From the sequence record PZ019086.1: 64,000 bases of DNA. One strand, 5' to 3'. Under the pieces are notes generated by a model that was not told where the DNA came from, ran no database searches, and saw only the letters and a program-made list of their open reading frames with translations. How positions within the stretch are numbered: the first letter of the stretch is position 1; every line of letters starts with the position of its first letter. Shown here in pieces: positions 1 through 19,620 of this stretch. The DNA comes from a phage. A program made the translations under genes and the position numbers.

Positions 1-37
1 GATCCAATAGATGCTATTTCATTCAGAATTTTAAGAA

Positions 38-307
38 TCATTGTTCATCCTTCAGAGTTTGATTTACAGCTCTATTATAAATCAATTCATCATTAAGCTC
101 AGTTAAAGACCTATGATATGTAGTTCTAACTTTATTTCCTTGCATCCAGTGCTTGATATAAATGAAACCTTGCTCTACACATTTTTTAAAAATTCGTTCG
201 TCTTTTTGAGCTCGGAATTCTGGATTACATCTAAAGAATTGATTTACGTGACCGTAATCACGTGTAGTATTACCTTCATTTTCATAAATAGTGTGAACGA
301 CAAACAT
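38..307 (-). CDS. hypothetical early protein (30.x cluster position)
   Basis: 89-codon ORF on the early strand, tightly packed with neighbours; no motif recognised. Confidence 0.35.
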   Translation of the reverse strand: MFVVHTIYENEGNTTRDYGHVNQFFRCNPEFRAQKDERIFKKCVEQGFIYIKHWMQGNKVRTTYHRSLTELNDELIYNRAVNQTLKDEQ

Positions 308-1146
308 TAGAATGCTCCTTGGAAAATATTATCACCGCTAGTAGGTCTATTATACAAATACTCTATGCCACCAGGTTTAATATAGTTCCATGTCTGAAAC
401 GGATGTGTCTGATATGGATGATATAGATGATTATAAGGATTAAATCCAGGCGTTCTCCAGGTAGTGTTCCAAGGAAAAGAATCGTTTTTAACCATCTTCT
501 CAATTAAATCTTTTATAGCTTTTTCACTATCAAAACTTTCTTTATTTTCCTTTGGTGAAAAAAGCTTATTTTCTACATCATTCCATGTATAAACTCGCTG
601 CGCAGTTTTTGGAATATTGTCACGCTCTCCTCGAGCCATCCAATAAACCGGAACATTTAATATTTCACTCGCATGATCGCAGTGGTGAGCAAGATCGTCA
701 ATATAACAAATTACGTTATATTTCTCTTTTGCCTTTTTAAACAACTCTTCTTTTGAAGAATCATGACCACACATCATTACTTCTGAGAAGGCACCAGGAA
801 AAAGAGCATTCAAATTAAATTGACGATTCAACAGAGCGTCAATAGAATCACCCAATGCTGTAACAGCTACAAAATTATAATCTTCTTTTAATTTGTTAAT
901 TACACACAGGGCATCTTTATATGGAGACAAGTAACGAATAAAATCTGATCGATTGTATTTTTCAATTAGCTTGACACCGAGTTCTTCATCGCAATTAAAG
1001 AGTTTACCTGGAGAAATAAATTTCTCATCTTGGATCATTTTTAAAATATGTTCTAACGGAAGATTATATTTCTGAGCAAAATAAGGAAGGCCTGATTGCC
1101 AGCTTAAACATACTCCATCAATATCAGTTAAAATAGTAGGCTTCAT
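307..1146 (-). CDS. HAD-superfamily hydrolase-like protein with Pro/Tyr/Asn-rich C-terminal tail
   Basis: N-terminal D-I-D-G-V (DxDGx) motif, later T-A-L, K and Y-I-D-D segments consistent with HAD phosphatase motifs I-IV; start codon overlaps upstream ORF stop. Confidence 0.55.
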   Translation of the reverse strand: MKPTILTDIDGVCLSWQSGLPYFAQKYNLPLEHILKMIQDEKFISPGKLFNCDEELGVKLIEKYNRSDFIRYLSPYKDALCVINKLKEDYNFVAVTALGDSIDALLNRQFNLNALFPGAFSEVMMCGHDSSKEELFKKAKEKYNVICYIDDLAHHCDHASEILNVPVYWMARGERDNIPKTAQRVYTWNDVENKLFSPKENKESFDSEKAIKDLIEKMVKNDSFPWNTTWRTPGFNPYNHLYHPYQTHPFQTWNYIKPGGIEYLYNRPTSGDNIFQGAF

Positions 1147-1607
1147 AGAGAGTCTCTTAATAGATTTAACACATCAATAAATTCAGCTTCGGTTAGTATT
1201 GTATCATCTTTTGTTAGACCACTAGCCATGCTGTGCTTCAAAACTTTTCCTTTTGAGGCTTGTAATGCATCACGAAAGCCCCTGTTTTGGATCGCTGCTT
1301 CAAAATATGCATTTGTGTATAATTCTTTCCATGCTTCGGAATATCTTGAAAACGGAGTTCCAAGCCAGAACAACGTGCCACGGTCCTGAGCTCTAGCATA
1401 AGACCTTCCAGCTTGTTGGGCGGCAATCCCGGATAACCTAAATATACGTCTTTGCTGTTCAACATTTTTCACCTTACATCCTTGTAGGAATCCTTCGAGA
1501 CCTCCAAATTGAATGCCATCCATGACGAAAGGCCATTGGGCGAAATTACTTAATGCGCATGATGGCCATCTAAAATTGCTTCTTATCTCTAACTCAGACA
1601 TTTTCAA
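1143..1607 (-). CDS. NADAR (YbiA-like) domain protein
   Basis: S-N-F-A-x-W-P ... G ... E-G-F-L-Q and A-A-Q-Q-A-G-R segments resemble the E. coli YbiA/NADAR family as I recall it; 154 aa. Confidence 0.6.
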   Translation of the reverse strand: MKMSELEIRSNFRWPSCALSNFAQWPFVMDGIQFGGLEGFLQGCKVKNVEQQRRIFRLSGIAAQQAGRSYARAQDRGTLFWLGTPFSRYSEAWKELYTNAYFEAAIQNRGFRDALQASKGKVLKHSMASGLTKDDTILTEAEFIDVLNLLRDSL

Positions 1608-1800
1608 TACTTATAATTTCAACATCAGCCCAATGACCATAGCAAGGAAGACGAAATTCAACTGGCCAGTTAGGGTCCTTTTCTAATATAATAGACTGAA
1701 CTTGTGGCTCTTCATATTCATCGGTATACGGACCTTTATACGTTACTTTATATGTGACCTTAATATACTGAATTCCAAAAATCTTATTAATTATATTCAT
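1594..1800 (-). CDS. hypothetical early protein
   Basis: 68-codon ORF, overlapping stop/start with neighbours. Confidence 0.35.
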   Translation of the reverse strand: MNIINKIFGIQYIKVTYKVTYKGPYTDEYEEPQVQSIILEKDPNWPVEFRLPCYGHWADVEIISIENV

Positions 1801-1994
1801 ACTAATTCCTTTAATCCATAGATAGGAGATAATTCATCGCCCATGCGAAGGTCTTCATTTCCATCTACCCAGGAAACAATATAAGCTTCTTTTATTTGAA
1901 CGTCTCTCCATTTAAATGGAGGTAGAACCTTAGAAATTAATCCAGGTATACCGACTCCCTTTAATTCAACAGTTTGACCTAAAAAGAATTTCAT
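1797..1994 (-). CDS. hypothetical early protein
   Basis: 65-codon ORF, 4-nt overlap with downstream ORF. Confidence 0.35.
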   Translation of the reverse strand: MKFFLGQTVELKGVGIPGLISKVLPPFKWRDVQIKEAYIVSWVDGNEDLRMGDELSPIYGLKELV

Positions 1995-2281
1995 TAGAAC
2001 CTCATCTGAAAACCGTGCGATTTAACATTACCGCCGCCAATGTCAGAAATGTTAATTTCACGCGCAATTGAAGGGTCAATGTCAATTTCACGATTGAGTT
2101 TAGTGATAGCTAAAGTATCGCGCCCATTTACAGTACGGAACTCTAAAGGACATACTACATTAACGTAGTTTTTAATCGATTCGCTGGTAGGTTGCAAATG
2201 AGCAGGAAGGTCTTTAGGTGCCTTAGAGAAAACCACTTCACAGAAATTTTTGCGGGTATCAAAATAAGTAGTCATAAACAT
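1994..2281 (-). CDS. hypothetical early protein
   Basis: 95-codon ORF preceded by an intercistronic hairpin. Confidence 0.4.
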   Translation of the reverse strand: MFMTTYFDTRKNFCEVVFSKAPKDLPAHLQPTSESIKNYVNVVCPLEFRTVNGRDTLAITKLNREIDIDPSIAREINISDIGGGNVKSHGFQMRF

Positions 2282-2298
2282 AGTATTTTCCTCAGTAA

Positions 2299-2312
2299 GG
2301 GGCCGAAGCCCC
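2299..2312 (-). other. intercistronic UUCG-tetraloop hairpin
   Basis: plus GGGGC-CGAA-GCCCC, read on minus as GGGGC-UUCG-GCCCC, between two ORFs. Confidence 0.5.
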
Positions 2313-2322
2313 TCATTTTATT

Positions 2323-2688
2323 TTAAATATCAAATTCGTTAAGAACTACATCAAAGATTGCTTCAAGATGCTCAGGTTTAGCTCTGTTACTCAGAATATG
2401 ACGAATCCAAGTTTTAACCAGAAGCTTGCGATTAACGCCATTCCAACAAGGATGAGTCCCTAAATCGCGTTGACGAAAATCATCATCCAATGCGATTTTA
2501 AAAGAAGAACCTTCTTTCGTGATTGAAACCGTGATGCCATTTTCAAATCGCATATAAACGTAGTTAGGAGTCATATACTGTTCAATTTCGCATACTGATC
2601 CGTTTTGATGTTTCCAAAGGCAAATAGTATCAATAGAACCTGCAATACCATTAGAAACATATTTACGTTCAAAGTTGATGTAGTTCAT
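2323..2688 (-). CDS. hypothetical early protein
   Basis: 121-codon ORF with GGAGA Shine-Dalgarno and its own early promoter upstream. Confidence 0.45.
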   Translation of the reverse strand: MNYINFERKYVSNGIAGSIDTICLWKHQNGSVCEIEQYMTPNYVYMRFENGITVSITKEGSSFKIALDDDFRQRDLGTHPCWNGVNRKLLVKTWIRHILSNRAKPEHLEAIFDVVLNEFDI

Positions 2689-2756
2689 TTTTATTCTCCG
2701 AGATGTTTAATTGCGGTACAGGTATATAATATCATATCCTGTACCAAAGTAAACAA

Positions 2757-3089
2757 TTATTTTACTACTTTCCAGTGCTGCATGTCAAGTTTACCAACTT
2801 TTTTCATCTTCTCAATTAAGCGTTCGGCACGTTGGCGAGCTGTAACATAATACCATTCACCTAATTCATTTTGTTCAATTTTTCCAACGATTACTGTATT
2901 CAATTCATAAATCCAACCAGTAAAGAAATTATGAACTTGAATTGTAAAGGTGAAATCTGTTCCCATACCTTCTGTTGTTTCTACTTCAATAACATCACCT
3001 TCAACTGCCATTAAGAACCACATAGTTTCATCATATTTACCATTGAAGCATTTAGTTTTAACTGTGGCGTTCAGATTAATCGTTTTCAT
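2757..3089 (-). CDS. hypothetical early protein
   Basis: 110-codon ORF with AGGAG Shine-Dalgarno and promoter upstream. Confidence 0.45.
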   Translation of the reverse strand: MKTINLNATVKTKCFNGKYDETMWFLMAVEGDVIEVETTEGMGTDFTFTIQVHNFFTGWIYELNTVIVGKIEQNELGEWYYVTARQRAERLIEKMKKVGKLDMQHWKVVK

Positions 3090-3199
3090 TTTATTCTCCT
3101 TTGTTTGTGTAAGATAATACTATCACAAAGGAACTATACTGTAAACAACTTTATGCAATCTTTGGAAAATAAAAAAGGACTCCCGAAGGAGTCCTTAAC

Positions 3200-3376
3200 T
3201 TATGCTTTCTGCTTACCAAAACGAGAAGCATCATCTCGAAGAACCGCACGTGCTCGGCGCATGATCTTCTCAACAGTTTGATTGATACGAGAGTTCGACC
3301 CACGCTTGTAACCAGCGCGTTTAGAATCACCAACTTTCTTTTCAACTGCTTTCTTTGCTTTAGCTTGTTTTGCCAT
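3200..3376 (-). CDS. small Lys/Arg-rich protein
   Basis: track ORF trimmed to internal Met (MAKQAKAKK...); about 58 aa, strongly basic. Confidence 0.35.
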   Translation of the reverse strand: MAKQAKAKKAVEKKVGDSKRAGYKRGSNSRINQTVEKIMRRARAVLRDDASRFGKQKA

Positions 3377-3774
3377 TATAAATTCTCTTTTAAATGAAAA
3401 TGCAGGACTTATTGGCATTGCCTGCGCAAGCCCTCAAGGGGAACATAGGTTTTTGAATATTTAACGACCAGGATAACCATAAACCCGTCATCATACCTTA
3501 TAGCTCTTATCTGTTGCACACCGTTAGCTTAAAGGTTCCGGGTCCGATTTCTCGAGGATAAGATATATACTGATGGATATATAGGCCTTGAGGCGTACTC
3601 CCGATTAGCCATCACCTCGGGGTAGCATGCACTTGCCGCTATAAGAATAACATTCAAGAGGTACACCGTAAAACTGCCGGGGTCTTAAAACTATAATGAT
3701 TCGCAAATCATTAATCAGACAGTTCGACGGCTCCTCGATTTTAGCTCACACTAAGGCAGTGAATCTCCAATAAA

Positions 3775-4023
3775 TTACTTCAGTGTTACCACAAAGTGAC
3801 GAACTGCTTTTCGTGCAGCAGAAGCCAGAGGCTTAGCATATTTAAGTTCATCTTTTTCCTGAAGCTCAGCAGCTAATGCAGTTTGAGCAGGATTCAGATG
3901 TTTGAAATAACGCAGGATTTCAAGAGCTTCGGCTTCAACATCAATAGATGCGCCATAGTTTTCGTGACCATTATTCCATGCGTTTCGTTGCAGTTCAAGA
4001 GCGTGTTGTAATTGTTTAATCAT
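3775..4023 (-). CDS. rIII: rIII lysis-inhibition accessory protein
   Basis: 82 aa, sequence matches T4 rIII as I remember it (MIKQLQHALELQRNAWNNGHENY...). Confidence 0.85.
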   Translation of the reverse strand: MIKQLQHALELQRNAWNNGHENYGASIDVEAEALEILRYFKHLNPAQTALAAELQEKDELKYAKPLASAARKAVRHFVVTLK

Positions 4024-4162
4024 TTAAAAATTCTCGTTAGAGATTAAAACTCGGTAGTCACGTTCTTCTGAATTTCATCTTCTTTCGACAGATCTCTCAG
4101 TTGTAGACTACCACATAGAATTGTTCGGTTAACTTATTATTCCGACACCCAATTCATATTAT

Positions 4163-4170
4163 TATTTATA
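4163..4170 (-). promoter_or_regulatory. late promoter core TATAAATA (minus strand)
   Basis: exact TATAAATA on the minus strand about 140 nt upstream of rIII. Confidence 0.4.
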
Positions 4171-4506
4171 TCACTTATAAAGACACGGAATAGCTTTATA
4201 GTGACAGGTAACGAATTTTTGTTTAATTTCTTTTGGCTGCTTAAGACCCAGAGCTACAAAAGGATGCGGAACGTTTCGAATTTGACCAACTGGAAGAGAA
4301 GTCAAATCACCAACTTCGCAGAAACCTTCAGGAACATCAGGACCAACAGAGTGAACTACACACAGTTCAGGAACTTCACCTTGAACACGTTTACCGATAA
4401 TAAGTCCTGATTCTGTAACTTCTTCATCACCGGCTTGTGCAGGTTCAGAAACTAAAATAACATATTCACCGACAGCACGAATTGGTAGCTGTTGTACTTC
4501 AGACAT
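4171..4506 (-). CDS. 31: gp31 co-chaperonin (GroES-like) for capsid folding
   Basis: 111 aa, matches T4 gp31 ([29 protein letters not shown]...). Confidence 0.9.
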
Positions 4507-4562
4507 CGTTTTTCCTTTTTGTTAACAGATGAATTAATAATAACAAATAATTCTTAAAGCAT

Positions 4563-4871
4563 TTATTTACCAATAAATTGAAGCAAATGCTCAACTTTCA
4601 TACCATTAACGGAAATCAATTTGTCAATAGAAAAACCTCGCCATGCACCAAGCTCAACATCAAATACTGGAATCATATCAGTAGATTCTTTCCGAGTAGA
4701 TTCAGTCAATTTACCGGTTTGCATAGTTGGCATAAAGTCAGCATCACGAGTGCCTTTCATAGTACGAATAGTACCATCAGACTTTTCAAAAACCACGTTT
4801 GAAATACCCATGGACAATTTAGTTTTCAAAATTTCACGAATTGCTACTTTCTGTTCAGTTGTCAGTTTCAT
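4563..4871 (-). CDS. hypothetical protein (31.1 position)
   Basis: 102-codon ORF between cd and 31. Confidence 0.45.
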   Translation of the reverse strand: MKLTTEQKVAIREILKTKLSMGISNVVFEKSDGTIRTMKGTRDADFMPTMQTGKLTESTRKESTDMIPVFDVELGAWRGFSIDKLISVNGMKVEHLLQFIGK

Positions 4872-5108
4872 TTATTTACCTATTACAGTTTTAATATGAG
4901 TTGTTCCACGTTCTTTAAGAGTGGAAAGCAACTTTTGGCATTTTTCTAAATCAGATTTCCAACTATACGTTCTATCAATACAAACCCATTCTGACTTATA
5001 ATACTGCTTCCATTTAGAGAAAAAATACTTCTTATACTCTACAGCAAATGAAATGTTCTCGTTAGAATAAGAACTAATTGCTGTAAGCTGTACCAAACGA
5101 AATTTCAT
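4872..5108 (-). CDS. hypothetical protein (31.2 position)
   Basis: 78-codon ORF abutting cd. Confidence 0.4.
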   Translation of the reverse strand: MKFRLVQLTAISSYSNENISFAVEYKKYFFSKWKQYYKSEWVCIDRTYSWKSDLEKCQKLLSTLKERGTTHIKTVIGK

Positions 5109-5689
5109 TATTCACCACAGAATTCGTTGATATTTTCCCAGTTTAACTTATTCAAGTTTTTCTTAGGAACATTAAACACTTCAATACCCGCATTTCGCAG
5201 AATATCATCCCAGCCAGGTTTATTTTTATCGTATGTTTCGCAATAAACCAGCTTTTTAATACCAGATTGAGCTATCGCTTTTGCACAATCTGGGCAAGGA
5301 GAAAGTGTTACATACATAGTAGCACCTTCAATTGAAGAACCGTTTCGTGCAGCAAACAAAATCGCATTTAGTTCAGCATGAATTTCATTTTTAGACGACC
5401 ATTCAGAGTGAGCACTGCGGTGTTCTTTCGCCAAGACAAAACGATCAGTTGAACCAAACGATACACATTCGGGCTTATGACCTTGAATGATAGTATGTTT
5501 AGGTTTATTCAGCAACCAACCTTGCTCAGCAGCATAATCACAACAGTTCACACCCCCGGCAGGTGAACCATTATATCCGGTAGAAATAATACGTCCATTC
5601 TTTTCAATTACTGCTCCTACCTTCCAGGAGCAGCATTTTGATTCTTGTGATACTAAATATGCAATTTGAAGTACTGTACTCGCTTTCAT
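5108..5689 (-). CDS. cd: dCMP deaminase
   Basis: 193 aa; zinc-binding H-A-E-L-N-A-I and P-C-P-D-C-A-K-A-I deaminase motifs. Confidence 0.9.
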   Translation of the reverse strand: MKASTVLQIAYLVSQESKCCSWKVGAVIEKNGRIISTGYNGSPAGGVNCCDYAAEQGWLLNKPKHTIIQGHKPECVSFGSTDRFVLAKEHRSAHSEWSSKNEIHAELNAILFAARNGSSIEGATMYVTLSPCPDCAKAIAQSGIKKLVYCETYDKNKPGWDDILRNAGIEVFNVPKKNLNKLNWENINEFCGE

Positions 5690-6024
5690 TTCATAATCAC
5701 CAGATAAGCAGATTTAGCAGTTTCAACACGATAAATTTCGTGACGAAGTTTAGTTATACTTTTAATAACAGAACTAATTATATTCTGCCCATCTTTAAAG
5801 CGGTTTTTCTTATCAATAAAAATTGCACCAACCATCTTTTTGTGAAGCTCAACTGGATACTTCGTCACAATAATAGCATCATACACAGAAGGATGAATAC
5901 TATTCACTAGAGTATCATTCATTAAAGTTATTCTAATGAACTGTGCTGTTTCAGAATCAAGCGCTCTATGATCGCCAGTATCATTTTCAAGACAATTATC
6001 AATTATATCAGTTAAATTCATCAT
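5686..6024 (-). CDS. hypothetical early protein
   Basis: 112-codon ORF. Confidence 0.4.
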   Translation of the reverse strand: MMNLTDIIDNCLENDTGDHRALDSETAQFIRITLMNDTLVNSIHPSVYDAIIVTKYPVELHKKMVGAIFIDKKNRFKDGQNIISSVIKSITKLRHEIYRVETAKSAYLVIMK

Positions 6025-6257
6025 AGTACGCCATACACCCTTTGTGCTTCAACTAATCCATCAAAATCCAGTTTAAGATGTGTTATTTGATCACCATCAC
6101 CTGGATTCACAATTACTAATACTGAACGAGGAGTTTCGGTAATAACACGAACCGATGTTTCTGGAAATCGTTCAGAAACCTTATTTACCAATTCCTGAGC
6201 AAATAGTTTAACTTTTTCTTGGAATTCTTTAACAGTAATTGGTTTTTCGCTTAGCAT
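6021..6257 (-). CDS. hypothetical early protein
   Basis: 78-codon ORF. Confidence 0.4.
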   Translation of the reverse strand: MLSEKPITVKEFQEKVKLFAQELVNKVSERFPETSVRVITETPRSVLVIVNPGDGDQITHLKLDFDGLVEAQRVYGVL

Positions 6258-6793
6258 GTTGATCCCAGCTCCTTACTTTCAACGTTTTTAACTAATTTGA
6301 CAGAAACTAATTCGGCATCTTGGGTAATCATTACCGGGCCTTCTTCATACTCTTCAAGATATTCTAGAGCTTTCTTTTTAGCTTCTTCCTTCGTATCAGT
6401 TTGAGCATAGATATAAAACATACAACCAGTAATACCTACTACTTTCCACTTAATTTCTTTATCAGTTTTAATTTCAAATTTACTGATAGAGTCATCTTTT
6501 TGAACTTCTTCGAAAAAATAATATTCTGACATATAAGTAATTGAAAATAGCGGGCTATCTTTATAGCATTCACCCATTACATCAACAGCTTTATACCAGC
6601 AGTCATCAATTTCGCGTTTAATGCTAATAACATTTTTCGCAGGATCTATTTTTACTTTAAATGAATTTTCCCCAATAAACTGAGCAATTCGTTTATTAGC
6701 CCCGCAAGTTTCATTAAAAATATCTTTATATCCAGCTTTAAAGCGATAAACCTTATCTTCTTCAAACCATTCGCTCATTTTCAATTTCCTCAT
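6251..6793 (-). CDS. hypothetical early protein
   Basis: 180-codon ORF with own promoter upstream. Confidence 0.45.
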   Translation of the reverse strand: MRKLKMSEWFEEDKVYRFKAGYKDIFNETCGANKRIAQFIGENSFKVKIDPAKNVISIKREIDDCWYKAVDVMGECYKDSPLFSITYMSEYYFFEEVQKDDSISKFEIKTDKEIKWKVVGITGCMFYIYAQTDTKEEAKKKALEYLEEYEEGPVMITQDAELVSVKLVKNVESKELGSTC

Positions 6794-6809
6794 TTGTTTT
6801 GGTAGAGCT

Positions 6810-6839
6810 ATAATATCACAACTCTACCGTAAAGTAAAC
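6810..6839 (-). promoter_or_regulatory. early promoter (GTTTAC -35, TATTAT -10) with -10 inside an inverted repeat
   Basis: plus strand shows gtaaac at 6834-6839 and ataata 18 nt away; 7-bp inverted repeat GGTAGAG/CTCTACC at 6801-6828. Confidence 0.5.
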
Positions 6840-6841
6840 TA

Positions 6842-7117
6842 TTAAATTGCTTTGAATTCTGATGTCTGTGATTCAAAGCGAATATCGCCTTTGATGACTA
6901 GCTCAGCATCAAGACCGAATACGACAATGATATGTGCGGAACCTGGATACAGCGTAATGGCAATAGAATCAACCTGGTCTGGAAGCAAAGTGTTCAATAC
7001 ATGAGTCACTTGAGCATGAATTCGAAGCTCGGCTGCGTTATCAAGCTTTTCAAACATATTATTAGCGATAATTTGGCTAAACACTACTTCTACGATTTTA
7101 GAATAAGTCGGAAACAT
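6842..7117 (-). CDS. hypothetical early protein
   Basis: 91-codon ORF. Confidence 0.4.
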   Translation of the reverse strand: MFPTYSKIVEVVFSQIIANNMFEKLDNAAELRIHAQVTHVLNTLLPDQVDSIAITLYPGSAHIIVVFGLDAELVIKGDIRFESQTSEFKAI

Positions 7118-7119
7118 AT

Positions 7120-7312
7120 TTACCTCACATAATTTTCTTCAAGCCAATCAATAACATCCAACGCATTATCAAAAGTTGAACCATCTACTCTGTCTTCTGT
7201 TTCATAATCAAGAACATCTAAGCCTACTCTTCCATCAACAATAGGCCATAAACAAAATAGATATTTCTTTTCTTTTTCAATTTTATCACAAAGTTGATAA
7301 ATCTTTTCTATG

Positions 7313-7320
<8 letters not shown>
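7120..7320 (-). CDS. hypothetical early protein
   Basis: 66-codon ORF. Confidence 0.4.
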
Positions 7321-8713
<1,393 letters not shown>

Positions 8714-8717
<4 letters not shown>

Positions 8718-8944
8718 TTATTTTTCTCAACCAATGATTGAATATAATCATGCAGGTCTTTAGATGCTTTACCCCACTTATTTTGGTATTCATTTTTAAG
8801 ATTAGCACGTGATTGAGCTAATAAAACATCATTAGTTGGAGGTAAAGATTCTAACCGCTGAATCTGGCGTCCGTAAATCATTGCAGCCATCTCGGATTCA
8901 TAAATCAATCCTTTGAGATGTTCAAATTGATGCCATGAAATCAT
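8714..8944 (-). CDS. hypothetical early protein
   Basis: 76-codon ORF. Confidence 0.4.
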
Positions 8945-9240
8945 TTACATTTATCCTCTTTTAACTCTTGACGATAATAACATATCATAGTTTTCTGGTC
9001 ATGTACATATCGTTTTACATCATTAAGCCAAATACGAAATTCCTGGGAATCTTCAAATGGCATACCGACCCAAGCTTTACCATCAATAACTTTAACTTGC
9101 CAAGATAGTTTAGCTTCATCATATGACTTTATTTGCACAGGCCAATTAGGATGAACTGTTTCTTTCTTTACTTCTAGAGGCTTTGTCGAACAACCAACTA
9201 GAAGACCAATAGATAATATTACTGCTGATAGTTTAATCAT
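8941..9240 (-). CDS. outer-membrane spanin (o-spanin) lipoprotein
   Basis: signal peptide with lipobox L-V-G-C; 99 aa; immediately downstream of a type-II membrane coiled-coil protein. Confidence 0.6.
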   Translation of the reverse strand: MIKLSAVILSIGLLVGCSTKPLEVKKETVHPNWPVQIKSYDEAKLSWQVKVIDGKAWVGMPFEDSQEFRIWLNDVKRYVHDQKTMICYYRQELKEDKCK

Positions 9241-9590
9241 TTAGAAAGGTCCTGGATGTCTTCTGCGAACTTGTTGAAGGAGTTGTTGATTTGTTTTTCA
9301 ACCAATCCTGGCTTATGAGCCACCACATCCGCCTTCTTTGCGTCTTTGCGCAGTTTTTCATTTTCACGCTCAATAGCAGCAATTGCCTCACGATTTTTAT
9401 TATTCATCGCATCAATATAATTATACTGAATTCGCAAATTATTTAATGCTAAAGCGTTTTCATTGGCTGTTTTTGTAATTTCAGTAACCGATGTTTCTAA
9501 TCTTTCTACCTTATTTTTTAAAATAATAGATGTTCCGCCAAATGCTATTACAAGTAATAGCAATCCAGCTGTAAAATTACTTACATGCAT
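9237..9590 (-). CDS. inner-membrane spanin (i-spanin)
   Basis: N-terminal TM helix followed by charged coiled-coil-like segment; 117 aa; 4-nt overlap with lipoprotein ORF. Confidence 0.6.
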   Translation of the reverse strand: MHVSNFTAGLLLLVIAFGGTSIILKNKVERLETSVTEITKTANENALALNNLRIQYNYIDAMNNKNREAIAAIERENEKLRKDAKKADVVAHKPGLVEKQINNSFNKFAEDIQDLSK

Positions 9591-10087
9591 AAAGTTTTAA
9601 TAACCTCTACAATATCGTCTTGAGAAAGACCGTTAATTAAAATATGATGTTCAGCCGGAGATTTAGAAATTTTAAAGCATGCCTCAACATCTTCTGCCAT
9701 ATCCGATGCGCTACGATTTGGATTACTAATTCCAAGACGATGTTTTCCCGTTAAAGGATTAACGATGATATAGCATTTACAGTTGTTAATATGAACATTA
9801 GGTTGAGTCTGATTAATGAACACATCGCAATCATATTTCGCAAGCTGATTTTCTAAAAAGACTTTCATCTCCTCAACCGCATCAGGAAGCATATCGCGGG
9901 CTTGCTCAAGACGACGATTTCGATATTCTTTAATGGTCGTTTTCCGCTTGACTTGCTTAGCTAAATCTTTCTTAAGATCGGTGATATATCCAACTCGACG
10001 ATTTCCTTTAAATACAGAAATCCCATCTGTAGTATCACCGTATGCTTCAACGACCATCTCAGTAGTAATAAGCTGTAAATCCATCAT
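9581..10087 (-). CDS. alc: Alc-like host transcription elongation inhibitor
   Basis: 168 aa ORF at the T4 alc position between the spanins and rnlA. Confidence 0.65.
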   Translation of the reverse strand: MMDLQLITTEMVVEAYGDTTDGISVFKGNRRVGYITDLKKDLAKQVKRKTTIKEYRNRRLEQARDMLPDAVEEMKVFLENQLAKYDCDVFINQTQPNVHINNCKCYIIVNPLTGKHRLGISNPNRSASDMAEDVEACFKISKSPAEHHILINGLSQDDIVEVIKTLCM

Positions 10088-10115
10088 AAAGTCCTCATGT
10101 TATGTCAGTAAGACT

Positions 10116-10145
10116 ACTATAACACAACACGAGGGACTTGTAAAC
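10116..10145 (-). promoter_or_regulatory. early promoter upstream of alc
   Basis: GTTTAC -35 (plus gtaaac 10140-10145), 18-nt spacer, TATAGT -10. Confidence 0.45.
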
Positions 10146-10148
10146 AGC

Positions 10149-11736
<1,588 letters not shown>

Positions 11737-11764
11737 AATAAAATGGGCCCTTGCGGCCCACTCC

Positions 11765-12934
11765 TTAAAAATATTTTTTAAAACTCATCATAACTTTATC
11801 ATCAACATCATTATCAATCTGTGCTACAAGGTAAGATGACAGTTCTACTTCTTGTGGCGCGGATTGAACATTATCAGAATTAAGATATTCACGAATCCAA
11901 GGATACGGATGTTTAACCGGAGCATCAGTAATTGGGCATGGAAGACCGCACTGTTTCATACGAGATACAGTTAAGTAATCAATAAAGCTCCACATGCTAT
12001 TTGTATTTAATCCAGGAACATCGCCATCTTTAAATAAATGAACTGCCCAGTCTTTTTCTTGACGGTTAACTTCCATGAAAATATCAACTGCTTCTTGTTC
12101 ACACTCTTGGGCGATTTTAACCCATTCATCACCATCAGTGCCAAGTTGAAGTTGACGAATAATATATTGGGTGCCTTTAAGGTGAAGCTGCTCATCACGT
12201 GCAATAAACTTCATAATCTTGGCATTACCTTCCATGATTTCCATGTTCTTATGGAAGTTAAAGGTACATGCGAAAGATACATAAAAACGAATAGCTTCCA
12301 ATGCGTTGATTACATGCAAGCAGAGGTAAAGAGATTTCATTAGCGCTCGTTTAGTACATTCAACAACTTTGCCTAGCTCTTCTTTACGAAATCCTTCTGA
12401 TAAAATTCCTTCATAATCTTCAACCGCATTCTGGTATTCACGAGTCTTAACTAGAACATCATCGTAATAGCGACCAATGGACTCGGCACGTTTCATAATA
12501 GCTTTATCTAATACAATCTCATCAAACACCTTTGACGGATCAGTATAAAGATTTCGCATGATATGAGTATATGAACGACTGTGAATAGTTTCACTAAAAG
12601 TCCATGTAGCAACCCATGTATCAAGGCTTGGGTCTGAAATTAATGACATAAGTACAGCAGACGGTGCACGACCCTGAATGCTATCCAAAAGTGATTGATA
12701 CTTCAGGTTATTAGTAAAAATATCTTGCTGATATTGAGGAAGCTTGTTAAATTGTGCAGCATCCATCATTAAGTTTACTTCTTCAGGACGCCAGAAAAAT
12801 GACAACTGCTTTTCGGTTAAATCTTCAAAAACTTTATGACGTTGAATATCATAACGCGCAATACCAAGACCTGAACCGAAGAACATAGGTTCTTTTAAAA
12901 CATCAACTGGATTTGTATTAAAAACTGTAGACAT
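11765..12934 (-). CDS. nrdB: ribonucleotide reductase small subunit, uninterrupted
   Basis: 389 aa from MSTVFNTNPVD...; di-iron RNR R2 motifs; continuous ORF (no intron). Confidence 0.9.
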   Translation of the reverse strand: MSTVFNTNPVDVLKEPMFFGSGLGIARYDIQRHKVFEDLTEKQLSFFWRPEEVNLMMDAAQFNKLPQYQQDIFTNNLKYQSLLDSIQGRAPSAVLMSLISDPSLDTWVATWTFSETIHSRSYTHIMRNLYTDPSKVFDEIVLDKAIMKRAESIGRYYDDVLVKTREYQNAVEDYEGILSEGFRKEELGKVVECTKRALMKSLYLCLHVINALEAIRFYVSFACTFNFHKNMEIMEGNAKIMKFIARDEQLHLKGTQYIIRQLQLGTDGDEWVKIAQECEQEAVDIFMEVNRQEKDWAVHLFKDGDVPGLNTNSMWSFIDYLTVSRMKQCGLPCPITDAPVKHPYPWIREYLNSDNVQSAPQEVELSSYLVAQIDNDVDDKVMMSFKKYF

Positions 12935-13665
12935 CAATTTTTCCTCTTTAAAATTCTGCCGTGTTTCCAACCTGGCGGTATAATATCATCTTTACCTATA
13001 AGCGTGCATTCACTTCCATTATTAATCCATTTCTTACCGCGGATTCCTTTATAATCTCTTGGTTTTATTTTGTCAAACTTTGCATCAAGTTGATATGACC
13101 ATCTAAATCCATAAGCATATTGAAATTTACCCTCGGCACAATATTTGATATTTGACCCGTTTCCATTAACTGACCGGGACGCTGCTGCAATAGAGTGAAA
13201 AGTTTCTATGAAATCCCCATCTAATGAGAATTTATGTATTTCTACAGATGGGCACGCATATCTATTCACGTTAGATACATGTTGTTTAGTTTCGTTTTTA
13301 TGATGCTTACCTAGCATTCCTTTAGGATGAGGATTATTTTTCCAATATTTCTTAAAGAACTCAGAATTAGCTTTAGCAAATAATTTTCTGTGTAAGCTGT
13401 ACAATCTATTATTAATTCTATTGCCAGCTTTATCTGTTGCCATTAGCGTTAATGCAGAGGCAAGTCCAAAATGGCCTTCATTTATCTTACACAGTAATAG
13501 ATGTGCTATAAAATGTTCTCTAGCTGTTAATTCAACTAAATTTTCTTTATCATCAGAACCTCCCATGCATCTAGGGATTATATGATGTGTCTCTTTATAT
13601 TCTGATAAAGATTCCCGAGCCTGAGCTCGGGAAATTAGGTCGTTATAGATTTTTTGATAATTCAT
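12934..13665 (-). CDS. mobE: free-standing HNH homing endonuclease (MobE-like)
   Basis: H-H-I-I-P-R-C-M-G-G-S-D-D-K-E-N-L-V-E-L-T-A-R-E-H HNH motif, basic C-terminal DNA-binding region; between nrdA and nrdB as in T4. Confidence 0.7.
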   Translation of the reverse strand: MNYQKIYNDLISRAQARESLSEYKETHHIIPRCMGGSDDKENLVELTAREHFIAHLLLCKINEGHFGLASALTLMATDKAGNRINNRLYSLHRKLFAKANSEFFKKYWKNNPHPKGMLGKHHKNETKQHVSNVNRYACPSVEIHKFSLDGDFIETFHSIAAASRSVNGNGSNIKYCAEGKFQYAYGFRWSYQLDAKFDKIKPRDYKGIRGKKWINNGSECTLIGKDDIIPPGWKHGRILKRKN

Positions 13666-15929
13666 TATAATTTACACGCTGCGCAATCATCGGCTTTTGG
13701 AGCTTCTATTTCATAATCATCAGTACCAGAACCATCGCGGGTATTATGATAATAGAAATTTTTAATGCCATAATACCATCCGTATAGCATGTCATCAATC
13801 ATTATTGACATTGGAACCTTTCCTTTTGGAAAAATCTGTGGGTCATAATATGTATTCGCTGAAGCTGATTGACATACCCATTTCAGCATAATAGCTACTT
13901 GCGTAAGATAAGGTTTATTACCTTTCTTAGCTAATTTCCATGTATAATCATAGAGGTCTATGTTATGTTCAATATTGGGCACGACTTGATTAAAGGAACC
14001 CTCTTTTGATTCTTTAACAGAGACTGGTCCACGTGGAGGCTCGATACCGTTTGTACTGTTAGAAACTTGGGAAGATGACTCACATGGCATAAGTGCTGAT
14101 AATGTGCTATTACGGATGCCAAAGAGCTTAAGGTCTTCCCGCAGCGACGACCAGTCACAAACGTATTTTGGAGCTGCGATTTGGTCAATCTTTTTATTGT
14201 ACCAGTCGATAGGTAATTCGCCTCGAGACCAACGAGTGTCTGAATAATATTCGCAAGGTCCTTTTTCTTTGGCGAGCTTAATTGATGCTTTAATGAGTCC
14301 ATACTGCAATCTCTCAAATAGTTCATGTGTTAAATCGTTAGCATCTTCGTAAGAAGCAAAATTACTTGCTAGCCAAGCTGCATAGTTAGTAACACCTACG
14401 CCAAGGTTTCGACGTTTTTTAGCTTTTTCTGCTTCAGGAACTGGATATCCTTGGTAATCCAAAAGATTATCAAGAGCACGAACTTGGACTTCTGCCAATT
14501 CATTAATTTTATCTTGGTCTTGCCAATCAAAGTTATCTAACACAAATGCAGATAACGTACACAATCCAATTTCAGCATCAGGACTATTCACATCATTTGT
14601 TGGAATAGCAATTTCACAACACAAGTTACTCTGACGAATAGGTGCCTTTTCACGAATAAATGGCGTATAGTTATTCGTATTATCAATGAACTGTACATAA
14701 ATCCTTGCTGTTCCTGAGCGTTCAGTCATGAGCAATTCAAACAGTTCACGGGCTTTAATGCGCTTTTTACGAATATTAGGGTCTTTTTCTGCGGCTTCGT
14801 ATAATTCACGGAAACGGTCTTGGTCTTTAAAATAAGAATAATAAAGTTCGCCACCCATTTCATGTGGACTGAACAAAGTGATGTAATCATTCTTTCCGAA
14901 TCGTTCCATCATTAGGTCATTCAGTTGAACGCCATAATCCATATGACGGATACGGTTTTCTTCTACACCTTTGTTATTTTTCAAAACGAGAAGATTTTCA
15001 ACTTCCAAATGCCAAATAGGATAATAAGCAGTAGCAGCGCCGCCACGAATTCCACCCTGTGAACATGATTTAACAGCAGTTTGAAAATGTTTCCAAAAAG
15101 GAATAACACCAGTATGACGTACTTCACCTGTGCCAATCTTAGAACCTTCGGCACGAATCATACCAACGTTAATACCAATTCCAGCACGTTTGGAGATATA
15201 TTCAACAATTGAAGCGGAAGCCTTATTGATAGACTTTAATGAATCACCCGCCTCAATAACAACGCATGAACTAAACTGTCGAGTTGGAGTACGGCAACCA
15301 GCCATAATAGGAGTTGGCAATGAAATCTGTCGAGTAGATACTGCTTCATAAAAACGAATAACGTGTTTTAATCTATCAACAGGTTCATCTTGATGTAATG
15401 CCATTCCAATAGTCATAAATGCAAACTGCGGAGTTTCATAAATTTGACCAGTGGTTTTATCTTTAACTAGATATTTTTCTTTTAATTGCATCGCCCCGGA
15501 ATAAGTAAATTCCATATCCCGCTCATGCTTAATTTTTGATTCTAAAAATGTAATTTCTTCAGCAGAATATTTTGACAACAATTCAGGGTCATATTTACCT
15601 TCATTTACACAGTAAGAAATATGGTCAATAAATGAACGTGGTTCATATTGCCCGTAAACATGCTTACGAAGAGCAAACATTAAACACCGTGCAGCTACAT
15701 ATTGATAATCAGGCTCTTCAACTGAAATAGAATTCGCAGCAGCCTTAATGACAATAGTCTGAATGTCATCAGTTGTCATTCCATCACGGAGATATGATTT
15801 AATATTTTCATATAATTCATAAGGATCTACAGATGTTCCTTCAGCTGCCCAGGATAAAACTTTAATAATTTTTTGCGGGTCAAAGCTCTGAGAAACACCA
15901 CTACTTTTGATAACATTAATTAATTGCAT
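13665..15929 (-). CDS. nrdA: ribonucleotide reductase large subunit
   Basis: 754 aa; class Ia RNR alpha sequence. Confidence 0.95.
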   Translation of the reverse strand: MQLINVIKSSGVSQSFDPQKIIKVLSWAAEGTSVDPYELYENIKSYLRDGMTTDDIQTIVIKAAANSISVEEPDYQYVAARCLMFALRKHVYGQYEPRSFIDHISYCVNEGKYDPELLSKYSAEEITFLESKIKHERDMEFTYSGAMQLKEKYLVKDKTTGQIYETPQFAFMTIGMALHQDEPVDRLKHVIRFYEAVSTRQISLPTPIMAGCRTPTRQFSSCVVIEAGDSLKSINKASASIVEYISKRAGIGINVGMIRAEGSKIGTGEVRHTGVIPFWKHFQTAVKSCSQGGIRGGAATAYYPIWHLEVENLLVLKNNKGVEENRIRHMDYGVQLNDLMMERFGKNDYITLFSPHEMGGELYYSYFKDQDRFRELYEAAEKDPNIRKKRIKARELFELLMTERSGTARIYVQFIDNTNNYTPFIREKAPIRQSNLCCEIAIPTNDVNSPDAEIGLCTLSAFVLDNFDWQDQDKINELAEVQVRALDNLLDYQGYPVPEAEKAKKRRNLGVGVTNYAAWLASNFASYEDANDLTHELFERLQYGLIKASIKLAKEKGPCEYYSDTRWSRGELPIDWYNKKIDQIAAPKYVCDWSSLREDLKLFGIRNSTLSALMPCESSSQVSNSTNGIEPPRGPVSVKESKEGSFNQVVPNIEHNIDLYDYTWKLAKKGNKPYLTQVAIMLKWVCQSASANTYYDPQIFPKGKVPMSIMIDDMLYGWYYGIKNFYYHNTRDGSGTDDYEIEAPKADDCAACKL

Positions 15930-16246
15930 AAGTCCTCAACTTGAAAATCGTCTTTAAACAATCGGTTAACTATATGAGCTATTATATCACCATGACACGG
16001 CTTTGGTTTACATGTGCATCCTAGCCTCATTCCACGTAAAGGCTCTAAATGTGCTTTAGTTATTTCTCCGGATTTAATTCGACGTATAAAATCTTTTTTG
16101 AATAATTCAATGGCAGCCTCCCGGCTGCCAGCATCTTTACCGACGTAATTTCCCCAAAATGTACCACGGTGAATATTAACATCAAAGTCGGATTTATATT
16201 TATTCACTACCTGGCATAGACGGCCCGCGCGGTAATAATTCGTCAT
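15920..16246 (-). CDS. DUF4326-like protein
   Basis: C-terminal [13 protein letters not shown] signature I associate with DUF4326; 108 aa. Confidence 0.5.
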
Positions 16247-16475
16247 ATTGTTGTTCCGTTAAAACAGTAATATCATAATAACAATCAGAAGAAGTTTTAA
16301 CTGTGGAAATTTTATTATCAAAATACTCACGAGTCATTTTATGAGTATAATACTTTTTACCATAAATGATAATAGGTTGTTCTGGTCCTGGAACTTCTAA
16401 CTCGCTTGGATTAGGAAGTGTAAAAAGAACGACACCAGAAGTATCCTTAAATCGTAAAATCATATATCCTCTCAA
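16200..16475 (-). CDS. hypothetical early protein
   Basis: 91-codon ORF overlapping neighbour by 47 nt in another frame. Confidence 0.4.
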
Positions 16476-16486
16476 TTAAATTAAAA

Positions 16487-17347
16487 TTACACCGCCATCT
16501 TTCCTTTAATTGGCGGGTGAGATACATAGTTGTTAAGAACAAAATTATGCGGCTTTGCGAATTGACTCAACCAAAATACCTGCGATTCTGTGTCCCATTC
16601 ATCAAATTCATCTGGAAATTTTAATTGTAATTCGCATAAATCCATAGGTTCACGACGCAAAATTTCTTTACATTGTTCTACGTGATTCATATAGATATGA
16701 GTATTACCACCAGAAAATATCAAATCTCCAGGAATAAGATTACACATCTTAGCTACAATATGAACTAACGCAGCATATGATGCAATGTTGAATGGCAAGC
16801 CCAAGAACACGTCAACACTTCTTTGATACCACTGCAAATCCAAATAGCCATTACGCACATTAAACTGATAGAACATATGACAAGGCGGTAATGCCATATA
16901 TTTAAGTTCAGCTGGATTCCATGCAGAAACAATTTGTCGCCTATCATTTGGTAGTTTTTTAATACGATCAATAACTTCTACAATTTGGTCTACACCACCA
17001 AAATCACGCCACTGTTTTCCATAAATTGGACCAAGTTCACCACTATGATATCCTAAATCTTTTGCTTGATTTTCGTAATTTTCATCCCAGACTGTTTTGC
17101 CTTGAATTAATGAATCATGTTGAATTAATCGTAAATCATTTACATTTGTGCTTCCCGATAAAAACCATATTAGCTCAGCAATGCAAGCTTTCCAGGCGAG
17201 CTTCTTAGTCGTTACTGCAGGAAAACCTTTAGTTAAATCCCAGCGTAATTTAGTACCGAACAAAGCAATTGTTCCTATGCCTGTTCGGTCATCGGTTTCA
17301 TAGCCATTTTCAAAAATGTCTTTAATTAAATCTTGGTATTGTTTCAT
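16487..17347 (-). CDS. td: thymidylate synthase, uninterrupted
   Basis: 286 aa continuous ORF with full ThyA sequence (…ALPPCHMFYQF…); no intron. Confidence 0.95.
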   Translation of the reverse strand: MKQYQDLIKDIFENGYETDDRTGIGTIALFGTKLRWDLTKGFPAVTTKKLAWKACIAELIWFLSGSTNVNDLRLIQHDSLIQGKTVWDENYENQAKDLGYHSGELGPIYGKQWRDFGGVDQIVEVIDRIKKLPNDRRQIVSAWNPAELKYMALPPCHMFYQFNVRNGYLDLQWYQRSVDVFLGLPFNIASYAALVHIVAKMCNLIPGDLIFSGGNTHIYMNHVEQCKEILRREPMDLCELQLKFPDEFDEWDTESQVFWLSQFAKPHNFVLNNYVSHPPIKGKMAV

Positions 17348-17392
17348 TTAGTACCTTATATAAATTATAATACATTTTATGAAGCTAAATAA

Positions 17393-17752
17393 TCAATACG
17401 GTTTAGCATCAAATTTTCTTTCAATTTCAGGCGTGAAATATAATTCTTTACCACGTTTGGAAAAGCGACCAATAATATGATAATTATTCTCATCAAACGT
17501 GATATTGCCAATATCCATAGCTTTCAACCAAATATCAATATTTCTGTCAAGCTTTATATCAAAATTCCAATACGGAGAACTATTACCGAAAATACTGCAA
17601 GCGGATTCAGTGAAACAACTGCTATAAATCTTGTCTTTAGGAACTACTAATTGATAGACGCCTTTAATAAACTGAGGACCCTGCCATTTTGGCTGTTTCG
17701 CGTCTTTTTCTAATAGAATAGGATAATAATTAAAGTTCATATTTTCCGCCAT
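17393..17752 (-). CDS. hypothetical protein inserted between frd and td
   Basis: 119-codon ORF filling the frd-td interval. Confidence 0.45.
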   Translation of the reverse strand: MAENMNFNYYPILLEKDAKQPKWQGPQFIKGVYQLVVPKDKIYSSCFTESACSIFGNSSPYWNFDIKLDRNIDIWLKAMDIGNITFDENNYHIIGRFSKRGKELYFTPEIERKFDAKPY

Positions 17753-17760
17753 GCGTTATT

Positions 17761-18587
<827 letters not shown>

Positions 18588-18597
18588 ATTATTTTCC

Positions 18598-18840
18598 TTA
18601 AACAGACTTTTTCACAATTTTCCAATCAGCTTTAAACTGTTCAACATCAGAATGGTAAATCCAAAACCCTGCGCTTTCTCCATCCTCATAAAGAGGACAT
18701 CTATCGCATTCATCTTCCCATCCCATATCACGCAAAAGACGTTCAGCTTTTTCAACAAGTTCAGAATCTTTACCGATGATATTAAAATACCATTTACCTC
18801 TAACTTCTGAATCTTTAATGCTCTGGCGTTGTAATCTCAT
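18598..18840 (-). CDS. hypothetical early protein
   Basis: 80-codon ORF with GGAG Shine-Dalgarno and promoter upstream. Confidence 0.4.
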   Translation of the reverse strand: MRLQRQSIKDSEVRGKWYFNIIGKDSELVEKAERLLRDMGWEDECDRCPLYEDGESAGFWIYHSDVEQFKADWKIVKKSV

Positions 18841-18894
18841 TTTATTCTCCTTAGTTGATAGGGTAATAGTATCACACTACTACCCTTCTGTAAA

Positions 18895-19275
18895 CTACTT
18901 TTTGAAAGTTTTTCGCAAAAGTTCAATGATTTCATCTACATTGTTTTCGTCTACAATGCAGTGAATTTTTGTTACGCCAGAAACCTTGTCTTTAGCTTCA
19001 TCTTCTTCAGAAGTCGGTTCTTTATACTCACGAAAACAATGAAATTCGTCTTCACAAATTTCTAAAAGTCTATCTTTGAGGTAAAAATGCTTTCCATTAG
19101 CGCATTCAATGTGTTTTACCGCTTTAAATCCATTAGCAAAGAAAGCTTCTTTAACTTCAAACCATCCGCCATTTTCTTGAATAATTTTAACTATTGACGC
19201 GTTAGATCGTGGGCTATAATTAATAAATGTATCAATAAGTCTTGGAACAAGCTCATACTTTTTGCCAATATACAT
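18895..19275 (-). CDS. hypothetical early protein
   Basis: 126-codon ORF. Confidence 0.45.
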   Translation of the reverse strand: MYIGKKYELVPRLIDTFINYSPRSNASIVKIIQENGGWFEVKEAFFANGFKAVKHIECANGKHFYLKDRLLEICEDEFHCFREYKEPTSEEDEAKDKVSGVTKIHCIVDENNVDEIIELLRKTFKK

Positions 19276-19319
19276 TACGTTTTCCTCATTTTGATAGGGG
19301 CTTGATAGCCCCTTGATAA

Positions 19320-19547: not shown

Positions 19548-19590
19548 ATTGTTTTCCTCTTTAATCATCAGCAGTATTGCCGATAGTTGT

Positions 19591-19620
19591 ATAGTACCAT
19601 AGTCCTTGTGGCATGTAAAC
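19591..19620 (-). promoter_or_regulatory. early promoter (member of a repeated ~60-bp promoter module)
   Basis: GTTTAC -35 (plus gtaaac 19615-19620), 18-nt spacer, TACTAT -10; AT-rich UP region. Confidence 0.5.

Follow-up and report, generated by a model that had tools for sequence, protein, structure and literature searches.

The early promoter at 6801-6839 of the window (the whole stretch of 64,000 nucleotides of phage DNA analysed here, from sequence record PZ019086.1) has its -10 hexamer enclosed by the arms of a perfect inverted repeat. This arrangement raises the question of what is selected at such a site: whether the pairing is a by-product of the promoter sequence, a structure of the DNA or a structure of an RNA that runs through the promoter, and what it would do there.

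Early promoters of the window and their hairpins

The window is a segment of a Tequatrovirus (T4-like) genome, and its minus strand carries the early genes. A 7-kb segment (rnlA-pseT-cd-alc) is 97% identical to many Tequatrovirus phages. By comparison with T4 (NC_000866), the window spans approximately gene 30 to gene 41 of the T4 map, crossing the record's coordinate origin at rIIA/rIIB. A pattern scan for GTTTAC-N17-19-TAnnnT returned 22 sites in the window, all 22 on the minus strand. Most of these promoters have an A/T-rich upstream flank, and most are followed by a Shine-Dalgarno sequence (SD) and an ATG, with the SD and ATG start 16-44 nt past the -10. The promoters at 40955, 37311 and 19620 are near-identical copies, so the sites are not all independent. 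No Rfam family reached its gathering score anywhere in the window.

The promoters were grouped by the position of the associated stem-loop (Table 1). In class A the two arms bracket the -10. Class B promoters have an arm in the -35/-10 spacer that pairs with the SD region of the downstream gene. Class C promoters lack an embedded hairpin; here a terminator of textbook form, with GC stem, UUCG-type loop and U-run, precedes the -35 by 13-36 nt. Class D is a 5-bp hairpin located wholly within the spacer.

Table 1 Promoter elements, promoter-associated hairpins and canonical terminators in the window
Feature	Positions	Strand	Sequence or arms (5'/3')	Remarks
-35, cd.3 site	6834-6839	-	GTTTAC	Early promoter 3' of cd.3; equivalent of T4 Pe133295
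-10, cd.3 site	6810-6815	-	TATTAT	Early promoter of the cd.3 site
Class A hairpin, cd.3 site	6801-6828	-	GGTAGAG/CTCTACC	5' arm 6828-6822; 3' arm 6807-6801
Class A hairpin	2715-2745	-	GGTACAGG/CCTGTACC	Gene 30.7 promoter; -35 at 2749-2754, -10 at 2726-2731
Class A hairpin	18860-18886	-	AGGGTAGTAGT/ACTATTACCCT	frd.1 promoter; one G.U pair
Class A hairpin	49286-49307	-	GGGACCA/TGGTCCC	motB promoter
Class A hairpin	61098-61133	-	AGCTGATAGA/TCTATCAGCT	Promoter of an 84-aa ORF; entire cassette missing in T4
Class A hairpin	61591-61616	-	ACAAGACTA/TAGTCTTGT	dmd promoter, directly 3' of the gene 41 stop codon
Class B hairpin	40395-40439	-	CTGTTCCTCTGTGGT (spacer arm)/ACTACGGAGGAACAG	15 bp; ACTACGGAGGAACAG contains the SD of the gene in the ndd.4 position
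Class B hairpin	3097-3132	-	TCCTTTGT/ACAAAGGA	30.8 promoter; SD overlapped by the 3' arm
Class B hairpin	10089-10139	-		alc promoter; long imperfect stem, SD GAGGA in the 3' arm
Mixed class A+B hairpin	50377-50419	-	TCCTC/GAGGA (outer helix)	motB.2 promoter; outer helix covers the SD
Class D hairpin	45212-45225	-	CCACA-aggaTGTGG	rIIA.1 promoter
Class D hairpin	40932-40946	-	CCACA-aggac-TGTGG	Promoter after denB
Spacer hairpin	11306-11320	-	CCACA-tggag-TGTGG	rnlA promoter with TGCTT (MotA-box-like)
Canonical terminator	3175-3196	-	GC stem, UUCG loop, U-run	Upstream of promoter 3146
Canonical terminator	19653-19671	-		Upstream of promoter 19620, itself without embedded hairpin
Canonical terminator	37342-37363	-		Upstream of promoter 37311 (motA), without embedded hairpin
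Canonical terminator	57516-57537	-		Upstream of promoter 57502, without embedded hairpin

Read on the minus strand, the cd.3 site is GTTTAC-tttac-GGTAGAG-ttgtga-TATTAT-ag-CTCTACC; the T4 ortholog of this promoter is L005 9332. As RNA, the 6801-6828 hairpin folds into a 12-bp stem with a 4-nt loop (dG -16.3 kcal/mol, z -7.3), and the six class A hairpins of the window range from -15.4 to -18.9 kcal/mol with z between -4.3 and -7.3. Class A RNA stems are 11-15 bp long with loops of 3-8 nt and are extended by G.U pairs between a TGTG stretch and the -10. The stem at the 2754 promoter contains one bulge, and the 3' arm of the frd.1 promoter hairpin includes the -10 (TACTAT, 18866-18871). An earlier note on this DNA had placed the -10 in the loop of the repeats, a description that fits the perfect Watson-Crick arms only; in the RNA, the G.U pairs continue the stem into the -10. 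With both strands read, the coordinates of its four inverted repeats are exact (2715-2745, 6801-6828, 61098-61133 and, with the perfect dmd-promoter arms CAAGACTA/TAGTCTTG, 61592-61615), and its list lacked the cases at 49286-49307 and 18860-18886.

The class B 5' arm lies in the spacer and, with the start site inferred from the -10, upstream of any position at which transcription could begin. Eight of 56 promoters have perfect complementarity over 7 nt or more between the spacer and the SD region (0.30 expected from shuffles), and anti-SD 4-mers occur in 29% of the spacers compared with 8% of background 18-mers. At the ortholog of the alc promoter in JS98 the arms are TCTCCTCAT/ATGAGGAGA.

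The motif CCACA-N4-5-TGTGG occurs three times in the window against 0.07 expected. These hairpins, reported in the earlier note for the spacers of early promoters, are real; the position 45212-45225 was right, and the other two were displaced by 8-16 nt. The hairpin at 11306-11320 was wrongly grouped with the early promoters: TGCTT replaces GTTTAC upstream of rnlA, which makes this a probable middle promoter.

Hairpins at the boundary between early genes

Judged from the -10, transcription would start about 7 nt past this hexamer, inside or just beyond the 3' arm, so the hairpin could form only in RNA reading through from upstream and not in the promoter's own transcript. RNAs begun 7 nt past the -10 were predicted by folding to have unstructured 5' ends and a free SD.

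The interpretation that we favour, and consider probable from the sequence comparisons, is an RNA structure at the boundary between cistrons that acts on read-through by attenuation, by protection of the upstream 3' end or as a barrier to processing; which of these RNA-level effects dominates is a matter of inference. The element would be a composite of the PeSL (promoter-early stem-loop) type, in which a strong sigma-70 early promoter doubles as the code for an RNA stem-loop, its arms occupying positions that RNA polymerase constrains little, namely the -35/-10 spacer and a few bases past the -10. The hairpin would form in read-through from the upstream gene, which ends with its stop codon 0-5 nt short of the -35. 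It would thereby mark the boundary of two cistrons on polycistronic early RNA and substitute for the GC-rich, U-tailed terminator used in longer intergenic gaps. In class B the 3' arm is the downstream SD itself; read-through RNA would be masked from translation, and expression of the gene would depend on its own promoter. The earlier note had listed several roles without choosing among them. A signal in read-through transcripts is the one that fits best, given that wobble pairs are tolerated in the sense strand only (see below) and that RNA begun at the promoter itself would lack the 5' arm.

The genomic context of the hairpins differs from that of hairpin-less promoters in two respects, counted in overlapping but non-identical sets of genomes. 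In 23 of 25 class A promoters from three genera, no more than 10 nt separate the upstream stop codon from the -35; the same holds for 7/8 of class D and 6/10 of class B, compared with 6/22 of the hairpin-less promoters (class A vs hairpin-less, Fisher P=5e-6). A canonical terminator within 110 nt upstream was found at none of 19 class A and none of 6 class D promoters, at 2 of 9 in class B and at 10 of 19 hairpin-less promoters (class A vs hairpin-less, Fisher P=2e-4). Three of the remaining hairpin-less promoters belong to rnh; they lie where this gene and gene 34 diverge and have no co-directional upstream gene. Some promoters that abut the upstream gene are likewise without a hairpin (e.g. 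60825). Together, the two counts indicate that a co-directional early junction has one of two elements, a gap terminator or a promoter-embedded hairpin. A terminator requires a gap, hence the exclusion may partly be an artefact of space. Both this mutual exclusion and the SD-masking variant had been missed in the earlier account of the architecture.

The authors of the PeSL papers suggested roles for such stem-loops as terminators or attenuators and as recombination junctions (PMC2839356). If terminators, the hairpins would stop RNA polymerase arriving from the upstream gene and leave the downstream gene to transcription from its own promoter only, which we consider unlikely for the hairpins described here. 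The mutual exclusion of embedded hairpin and canonical upstream terminator is what would be expected of functional equivalents, and the hairpins lie approximately 10 nt 3' of the upstream stop codon, as would suit a terminator. Moreover, one cloned stem-loop of an RB49 PeSL lowered lacZ expression as strongly as the terminator rrnB T1 (PMC2839356). However, this published test concerned a single RB49 stem-loop with G/C tracts, which is of a different type. No class A hairpin has a U-run, the bases 3' of the embedded hairpins being A-rich and without a U-tract (AAAACAAA, ATCAACTA and GCAATTAA). A terminator scan of positions 1-20000 flagged none of the three class A hairpins in this range, whereas it did flag the canonical terminators 3175-3196 and 19653-19671. 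The features of an intrinsic terminator, a GC-rich stem and a U-run, are absent in class A and present at these two sites as well as at 37342-37363 and 57516-57537; the same phages use textbook terminators with UUCG loops and U-tails elsewhere. The absence of both a U-tract and a scan flag makes efficient intrinsic termination by class A hairpins unlikely. Furthermore, delayed-early expression in T4 depends on the extension of early transcripts (PMC2988021), which speaks against a general stop at these junctions.

Translational masking offers no explanation for class A, since these hairpins leave the SD free. RNase III substrates were also considered and rejected, as the stems comprise only 11-15 bp.

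Conservation of pairing in the sense strand

The earlier note had suggested that selection acts on structure and not on sequence, and had named covariation of the arms at homologous promoters as a check. In comparisons drawn from GenBank phage records, the arms indeed change while the helix is kept at the cd.3, frd.1 and motB-type promoters; this covariation, along with the enrichment over shuffled sequences given below, bears the suggestion out. At the cd.3 site the arms are GGTAGAG/CTCTACC in Tequatrovirus (T4 and the window), GGTGGAG/CTCTACC with one G.U pair in Mosigvirus, GGTAGGAC/GTCCTACC in Dhakavirus and, with an unchanged dyad axis, AGGGTTAT/ATAACCCT in Gelderlandvirus (STP4-a). At Dhakavirus 04086 the class A 5' arm is gone and the spacer hairpin CACC-aaggac-GGTG is present instead, a switch of class. 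In an alignment of the cd.3 site, 86.5% of the cells are paired, compared with 32-61% when the partners are slid. Changes on both sides occur at three pairs, and the covariation score was matched by 3 of 500 shuffles; with only 8 rows in the alignment, this count supports selection on pairing and is no proof by itself. A scan of IMG/VR with the gene 3' of the 6839 promoter yielded four near-identical loci only, too few for covariation.

At the 30.7 promoter the arms are conserved in Mosigvirus and Dhakavirus and the loop and flanks are variable; in L004 the change to CTTGTACC results in a G.U pair. The frd.1 site has unrelated arms in three genera (AGGGTAGTA, GATAGGGCTA and AAGGCTATGGTA), each with a matching partner, those of Mosigvirus and JS98 being wholly different from the arms of the window with complementarity kept. 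Compensated variants of the motB type include AGGAGCA/TGCTCCT, GGGAGCA/TGCTCCT and AGAGCCAT/ATGGCTCT.

The imperfections of the helices reveal which strand is under selection. Among 60 unique helices from 107 promoters, the internal mismatches comprise 19 G.T/T.G, 2 A.C/C.A and 18 others, compared with a ratio of 94:73:362 (G.T:A.C:other) in the cross-paired control (binomial P=8e-4 for the G.T bias). Single-arm transitions between close relatives gave a wobble pair in 6/6 cases and an A.C in 0/6. An A.C on the sense strand corresponds to a G.U on the opposite strand; the strong preponderance of G.T over A.C therefore identifies the selected structure as that of a single strand in the sense of the early genes, which we take to be RNA. 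In line with this polarity, the predicted fold of each of the six window hairpins is more stable in sense than in antisense (mean -17.2 vs -12.0 kcal/mol). Over 80 promoters the global folding energy was lower in sense, a difference not significantly distinct from that of coding-sequence controls.

A function at the level of DNA, with a cruciform or hairpin serving as recombination hot spot, as the target of a dimeric protein or as a device for inverting the -10, is very unlikely in view of these data. Double-stranded DNA or a cruciform would penalise G.T and A.C equally, in contrast to the 19 and 2 cases observed, and arms that are different at every site are unreadable by one protein. The protein-binding site contemplated in the earlier note is disfavoured for the same two reasons, i.e. 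site-specific arms and tolerance of G.T but not of A.C. Moreover, arms of 7-10 bp are too short for easy extrusion of a cruciform. One observation in favour of a DNA-level function is the clustering of breakpoints between the window and T4 at promoter cassettes: 6 of 34 fall inside such cassettes against 1.13 expected (P=8e-4). The PeSL papers, too, propose recombination at the elements and speculate on a specific DNA-binding protein. For recombination, however, the conserved promoter sequence suffices and the arms are unnecessary. As an evolutionary side effect within the favoured reading, the repeated cassette of approximately 70-100 bp probably doubles as a junction at which gene cassettes recombine. 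An example is the insertion 60832-61162, a whole unit of promoter, hairpin and ORF delimited by breakpoints at these two positions. Past the 6839 promoter, the SD and the ATG of cd.2 are parted by a 175-aa gene, inserted precisely between them, and in T4, T2 and RB51 homology stops at the start codon 3' of this promoter.

The T4 record carries a note according to which a 14-bp loop, 133300-133313, was once reported as its inverted complement. This segment is exactly the loop separating GGTAGAG from CTCTACC. An inversion of the -10 at this site could be taken to favour a DNA-level switch, but among 657 records a query with the inverted loop matched in full only one, the old T4 entry X03007.1. 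The idea of a natural -10 switch by inversion is thus unsupported and was rejected; the version in X03007.1 resembles an artefact of early sequencing or a variant of laboratory origin.

Excess of inverted repeats over chance

To measure enrichment, the longest stretch of the spacer with a perfect complement in the 20 nt beginning inside the -10 was determined for each promoter, with a threshold of at least 7 bp. Five of the 22 window promoters reach this threshold, against 0.33 expected when the spacer of one promoter is cross-paired with the downstream region of another (P=2e-5) and 0.41 expected from dinucleotide shuffles, of which none in 1000 attained the observed count. For 66 promoters from three genera the figures are 15 observed and 1.19 expected by dinucleotide shuffling, again reached in 0/1000. 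The excess replicates separately in T4, in two Mosigvirus genomes and in Dhakavirus JS98. Cross-pairing is the stricter control, as it preserves the promoter consensus and the position-specific composition. The comparison with dinucleotide-shuffled controls proposed in the earlier note hence shows enrichment in the window and in related genera alike.

A mere by-product of the promoter consensus or of chance in AT-rich DNA has a negligible probability and is excluded by the controls: the stems do consist partly of consensus bases (TGTG upstream of the -10 pairs with UAUA of the -10 via G.U) and the copies at 40955, 37311 and 19620 reduce the number of independent sites, but the effect is lost upon cross-pairing, which retains consensus and composition, the shuffles never reached the observed counts, and the arms covary between genera.

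Relation to known elements

Judged by its sequence features, the element is a PeSL cassette, already known in T4-type phages, which the earlier note had not recognised. PeSLs were described in RB49 and phi1 by Arbiol et al. (2010; PMC2839356), with the stem-loop located mostly in the -35/-10 interval or overlapping the -10. Comeau et al. (2014; PMC4122927) reported PeSLs in the PST/T4 pair with TTTACW-N17-TAYWAT promoters, a pattern that the window promoters fit. The window cassettes share further traits with PeSLs. Their early promoter is of the sigma-70 type, is preceded by AT-rich DNA and lies in the intergenic space between the upstream stop codon and the downstream SD and ATG; a stable stem-loop is found in it or adjacent to it; and indels and swapped small ORFs are associated with the cassettes. 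PeSLs comprise five positional subclasses, including overlap with the -10; the window has classes A to D. The description of PeSLs further includes mini-circles that arise when cassettes recombine with one another. All sequence-level features of PeSLs, the indel association included, were found here, and the finding is hence already known in kind. RB49 stems, in contrast, are formed by G-tracts and C-tracts, whereas in the window each site has arms of its own, of mixed composition. According to the 2014 figure legend, the PST/T4 stems lie immediately upstream of the promoter and have the consensus AGNA...TCNT (PMC4122927). From this wording, these stems appear to be the canonical AAGGA...TCCTT terminators of class C and not embedded hairpins, so that, as far as the legend goes, identifying class A as such in Tequatrovirus, Mosigvirus, Dhakavirus and Gelderlandvirus amounts to a small extension. 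In their text, the PeSL papers contain neither the sense-strand wobble bias nor the exclusion between embedded hairpin and terminator nor the SD-pairing class.

In the T4 genes e, soc, 49 and I-TevI, a hairpin is known to mask the SD, and a promoter located within it relieves the masking (PMC3014915). Pairing of the SD in RNA initiated upstream, as in gene e, was found in class B only; class A hairpins differ in leaving the SD uncovered. As in these T4 genes, the class B 5' arm would lie upstream of the start site predicted from the -10 and the 3' arm covers the SD, and long transcripts would be masked while transcripts of the proximal promoter would be translatable; this geometry is present at 40395-40439, 3097-3132, 10089-10139 and 50377-50419. 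In the known cases expression is delayed by means of late promoters, whereas the internal promoter of class B is early, and its effect would be to tell the origin of a transcript and not to set its timing.

REP elements in E. coli operons are intercistronic stem-loops that shield mRNA 3' ends. Class A resembles them as a stem-loop without U-tract located just 3' of a stop codon in polycistronic RNA, which could block 3' exonucleases after cleavage downstream. REP elements, however, form a conserved sequence family, while class A arms are site-specific and the element is superimposed on a promoter. A literature search for a T4 3'-end or Term-seq data set covering the hairpin sites, and likewise for RNA half-life data, returned none.

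Implications for T4-like phages

The additions to the PeSL concept are incremental and consist of selection on the sense-strand RNA, the replacement of the terminator by an embedded hairpin where room is lacking, and a sizeable subset predicted to mask the downstream ribosome-binding site in read-through RNA. The architecture also helps to explain why promoter cassettes are found at the edges of swapped genes in T4-like phages, and it yields predictions for the mapping of T4 transcript ends as well as for the annotation and engineering of these phages. A more general rule, according to which each co-directional early junction carries an RNA structure specific to read-through (classes A, B and D plus terminators), is put forward tentatively and may well be too broad. 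If it held, the promoter of origin would set both the fate and the translation of early-gene RNA, and class B early promoters would represent an undescribed use of gene e-type masking that distinguishes own from inherited transcripts and does not serve delay. Independently of such a rule, the architecture lets a very compact phage genome place two signals in the same 40 bp, a promoter read as DNA and a hairpin read as RNA.

Hairpins, terminators and repeats at early promoters

In the RefSeq record of T4, a 14-bp stretch (NC_000866, 133300-133313; positions 9301-9314 of the T4 comparison sequence L005) carries the annotation 'inverted complement of previously reported sequence; corrects the early promoter Pe133295'. 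Its counterpart in our phage lies at window 6808-6821, and the annotated T4 stretch coincides exactly with the loop separating the hairpin arms GGTAGAG and CTCTACC. The inverted loop was found in 1 of 657 records, the old entry X03007.1. As none of the other records has it, the inverted version probably reflects either an artefact of early sequencing or a variant that arose in the laboratory, in both cases at a hairpin.

The class D hairpins, which lie wholly within the promoter spacer, differ in sequence between promoters and also occur outside the early ones. This follows from two cases: the rnlA promoter (window 11291-11330), where the MotA-box-like TGCTT replaces GTTTAC while the CCACA-N5-TGTGG spacer hairpin is still present, and the alc promoter of Mosigvirus, whose spacer hairpin reads ACACC...GGTGT. 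The canonical terminators that precede early promoters form a family of their own: they combine an AAGGAnnCC or GGGAG stem with a tetraloop (UUCG or UCGG) and a U-run. Terminators of this design are also found in Mosigvirus and Dhakavirus.

The minus-strand promoters 40955, 37311 and 19620 (named by window position) share a near-identical stretch of ~60-70 bp (ttttcacaaaacgGTTTACa...TACTATacaactatcaactac) and therefore are not independent examples. They are dispersed direct repeats of a length sufficient for homologous recombination.

Coordinates of inserted genes and canonical terminators
Feature	Window position	Description
175-aa gene	6251-6785	starts MSEWFEED...
330-bp insertion relative to T4	60832-61162	a single complete cassette made up of promoter 61140, a hairpin and an 84-aa ORF
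84-aa ORF of the inserted cassette	61079-60825	
Canonical terminators upstream of early promoters	3175-3196, 19653-19671, 37342-37363, 57516-57537	

Gene content relative to T4

At window 12267-12270 and 16795-16800 the phage lacks T4-specific segments of ~600 bp and ~1 kb, which map inside the regions annotated as the nrdB and td introns (I-TevIII, I-TevI); a search of the whole window detected no Rfam families, group I introns included. Across window 31124-33831, which holds the distal tail-fibre and adhesin genes 37 and 38, there was no nucleotide match to T4; this is the expected host-range replacement.

As an insertion, the 175-aa gene sits precisely in the gap separating the Shine-Dalgarno sequence of cd.2 from its ATG; the gene occurs in ime09, PST and RB5 but not in T4, T2 or RB51. 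Each end of the 330-bp insertion is located just upstream of one of two successive promoters, and this insertion is a textbook case of gene gain or loss by whole cassette.
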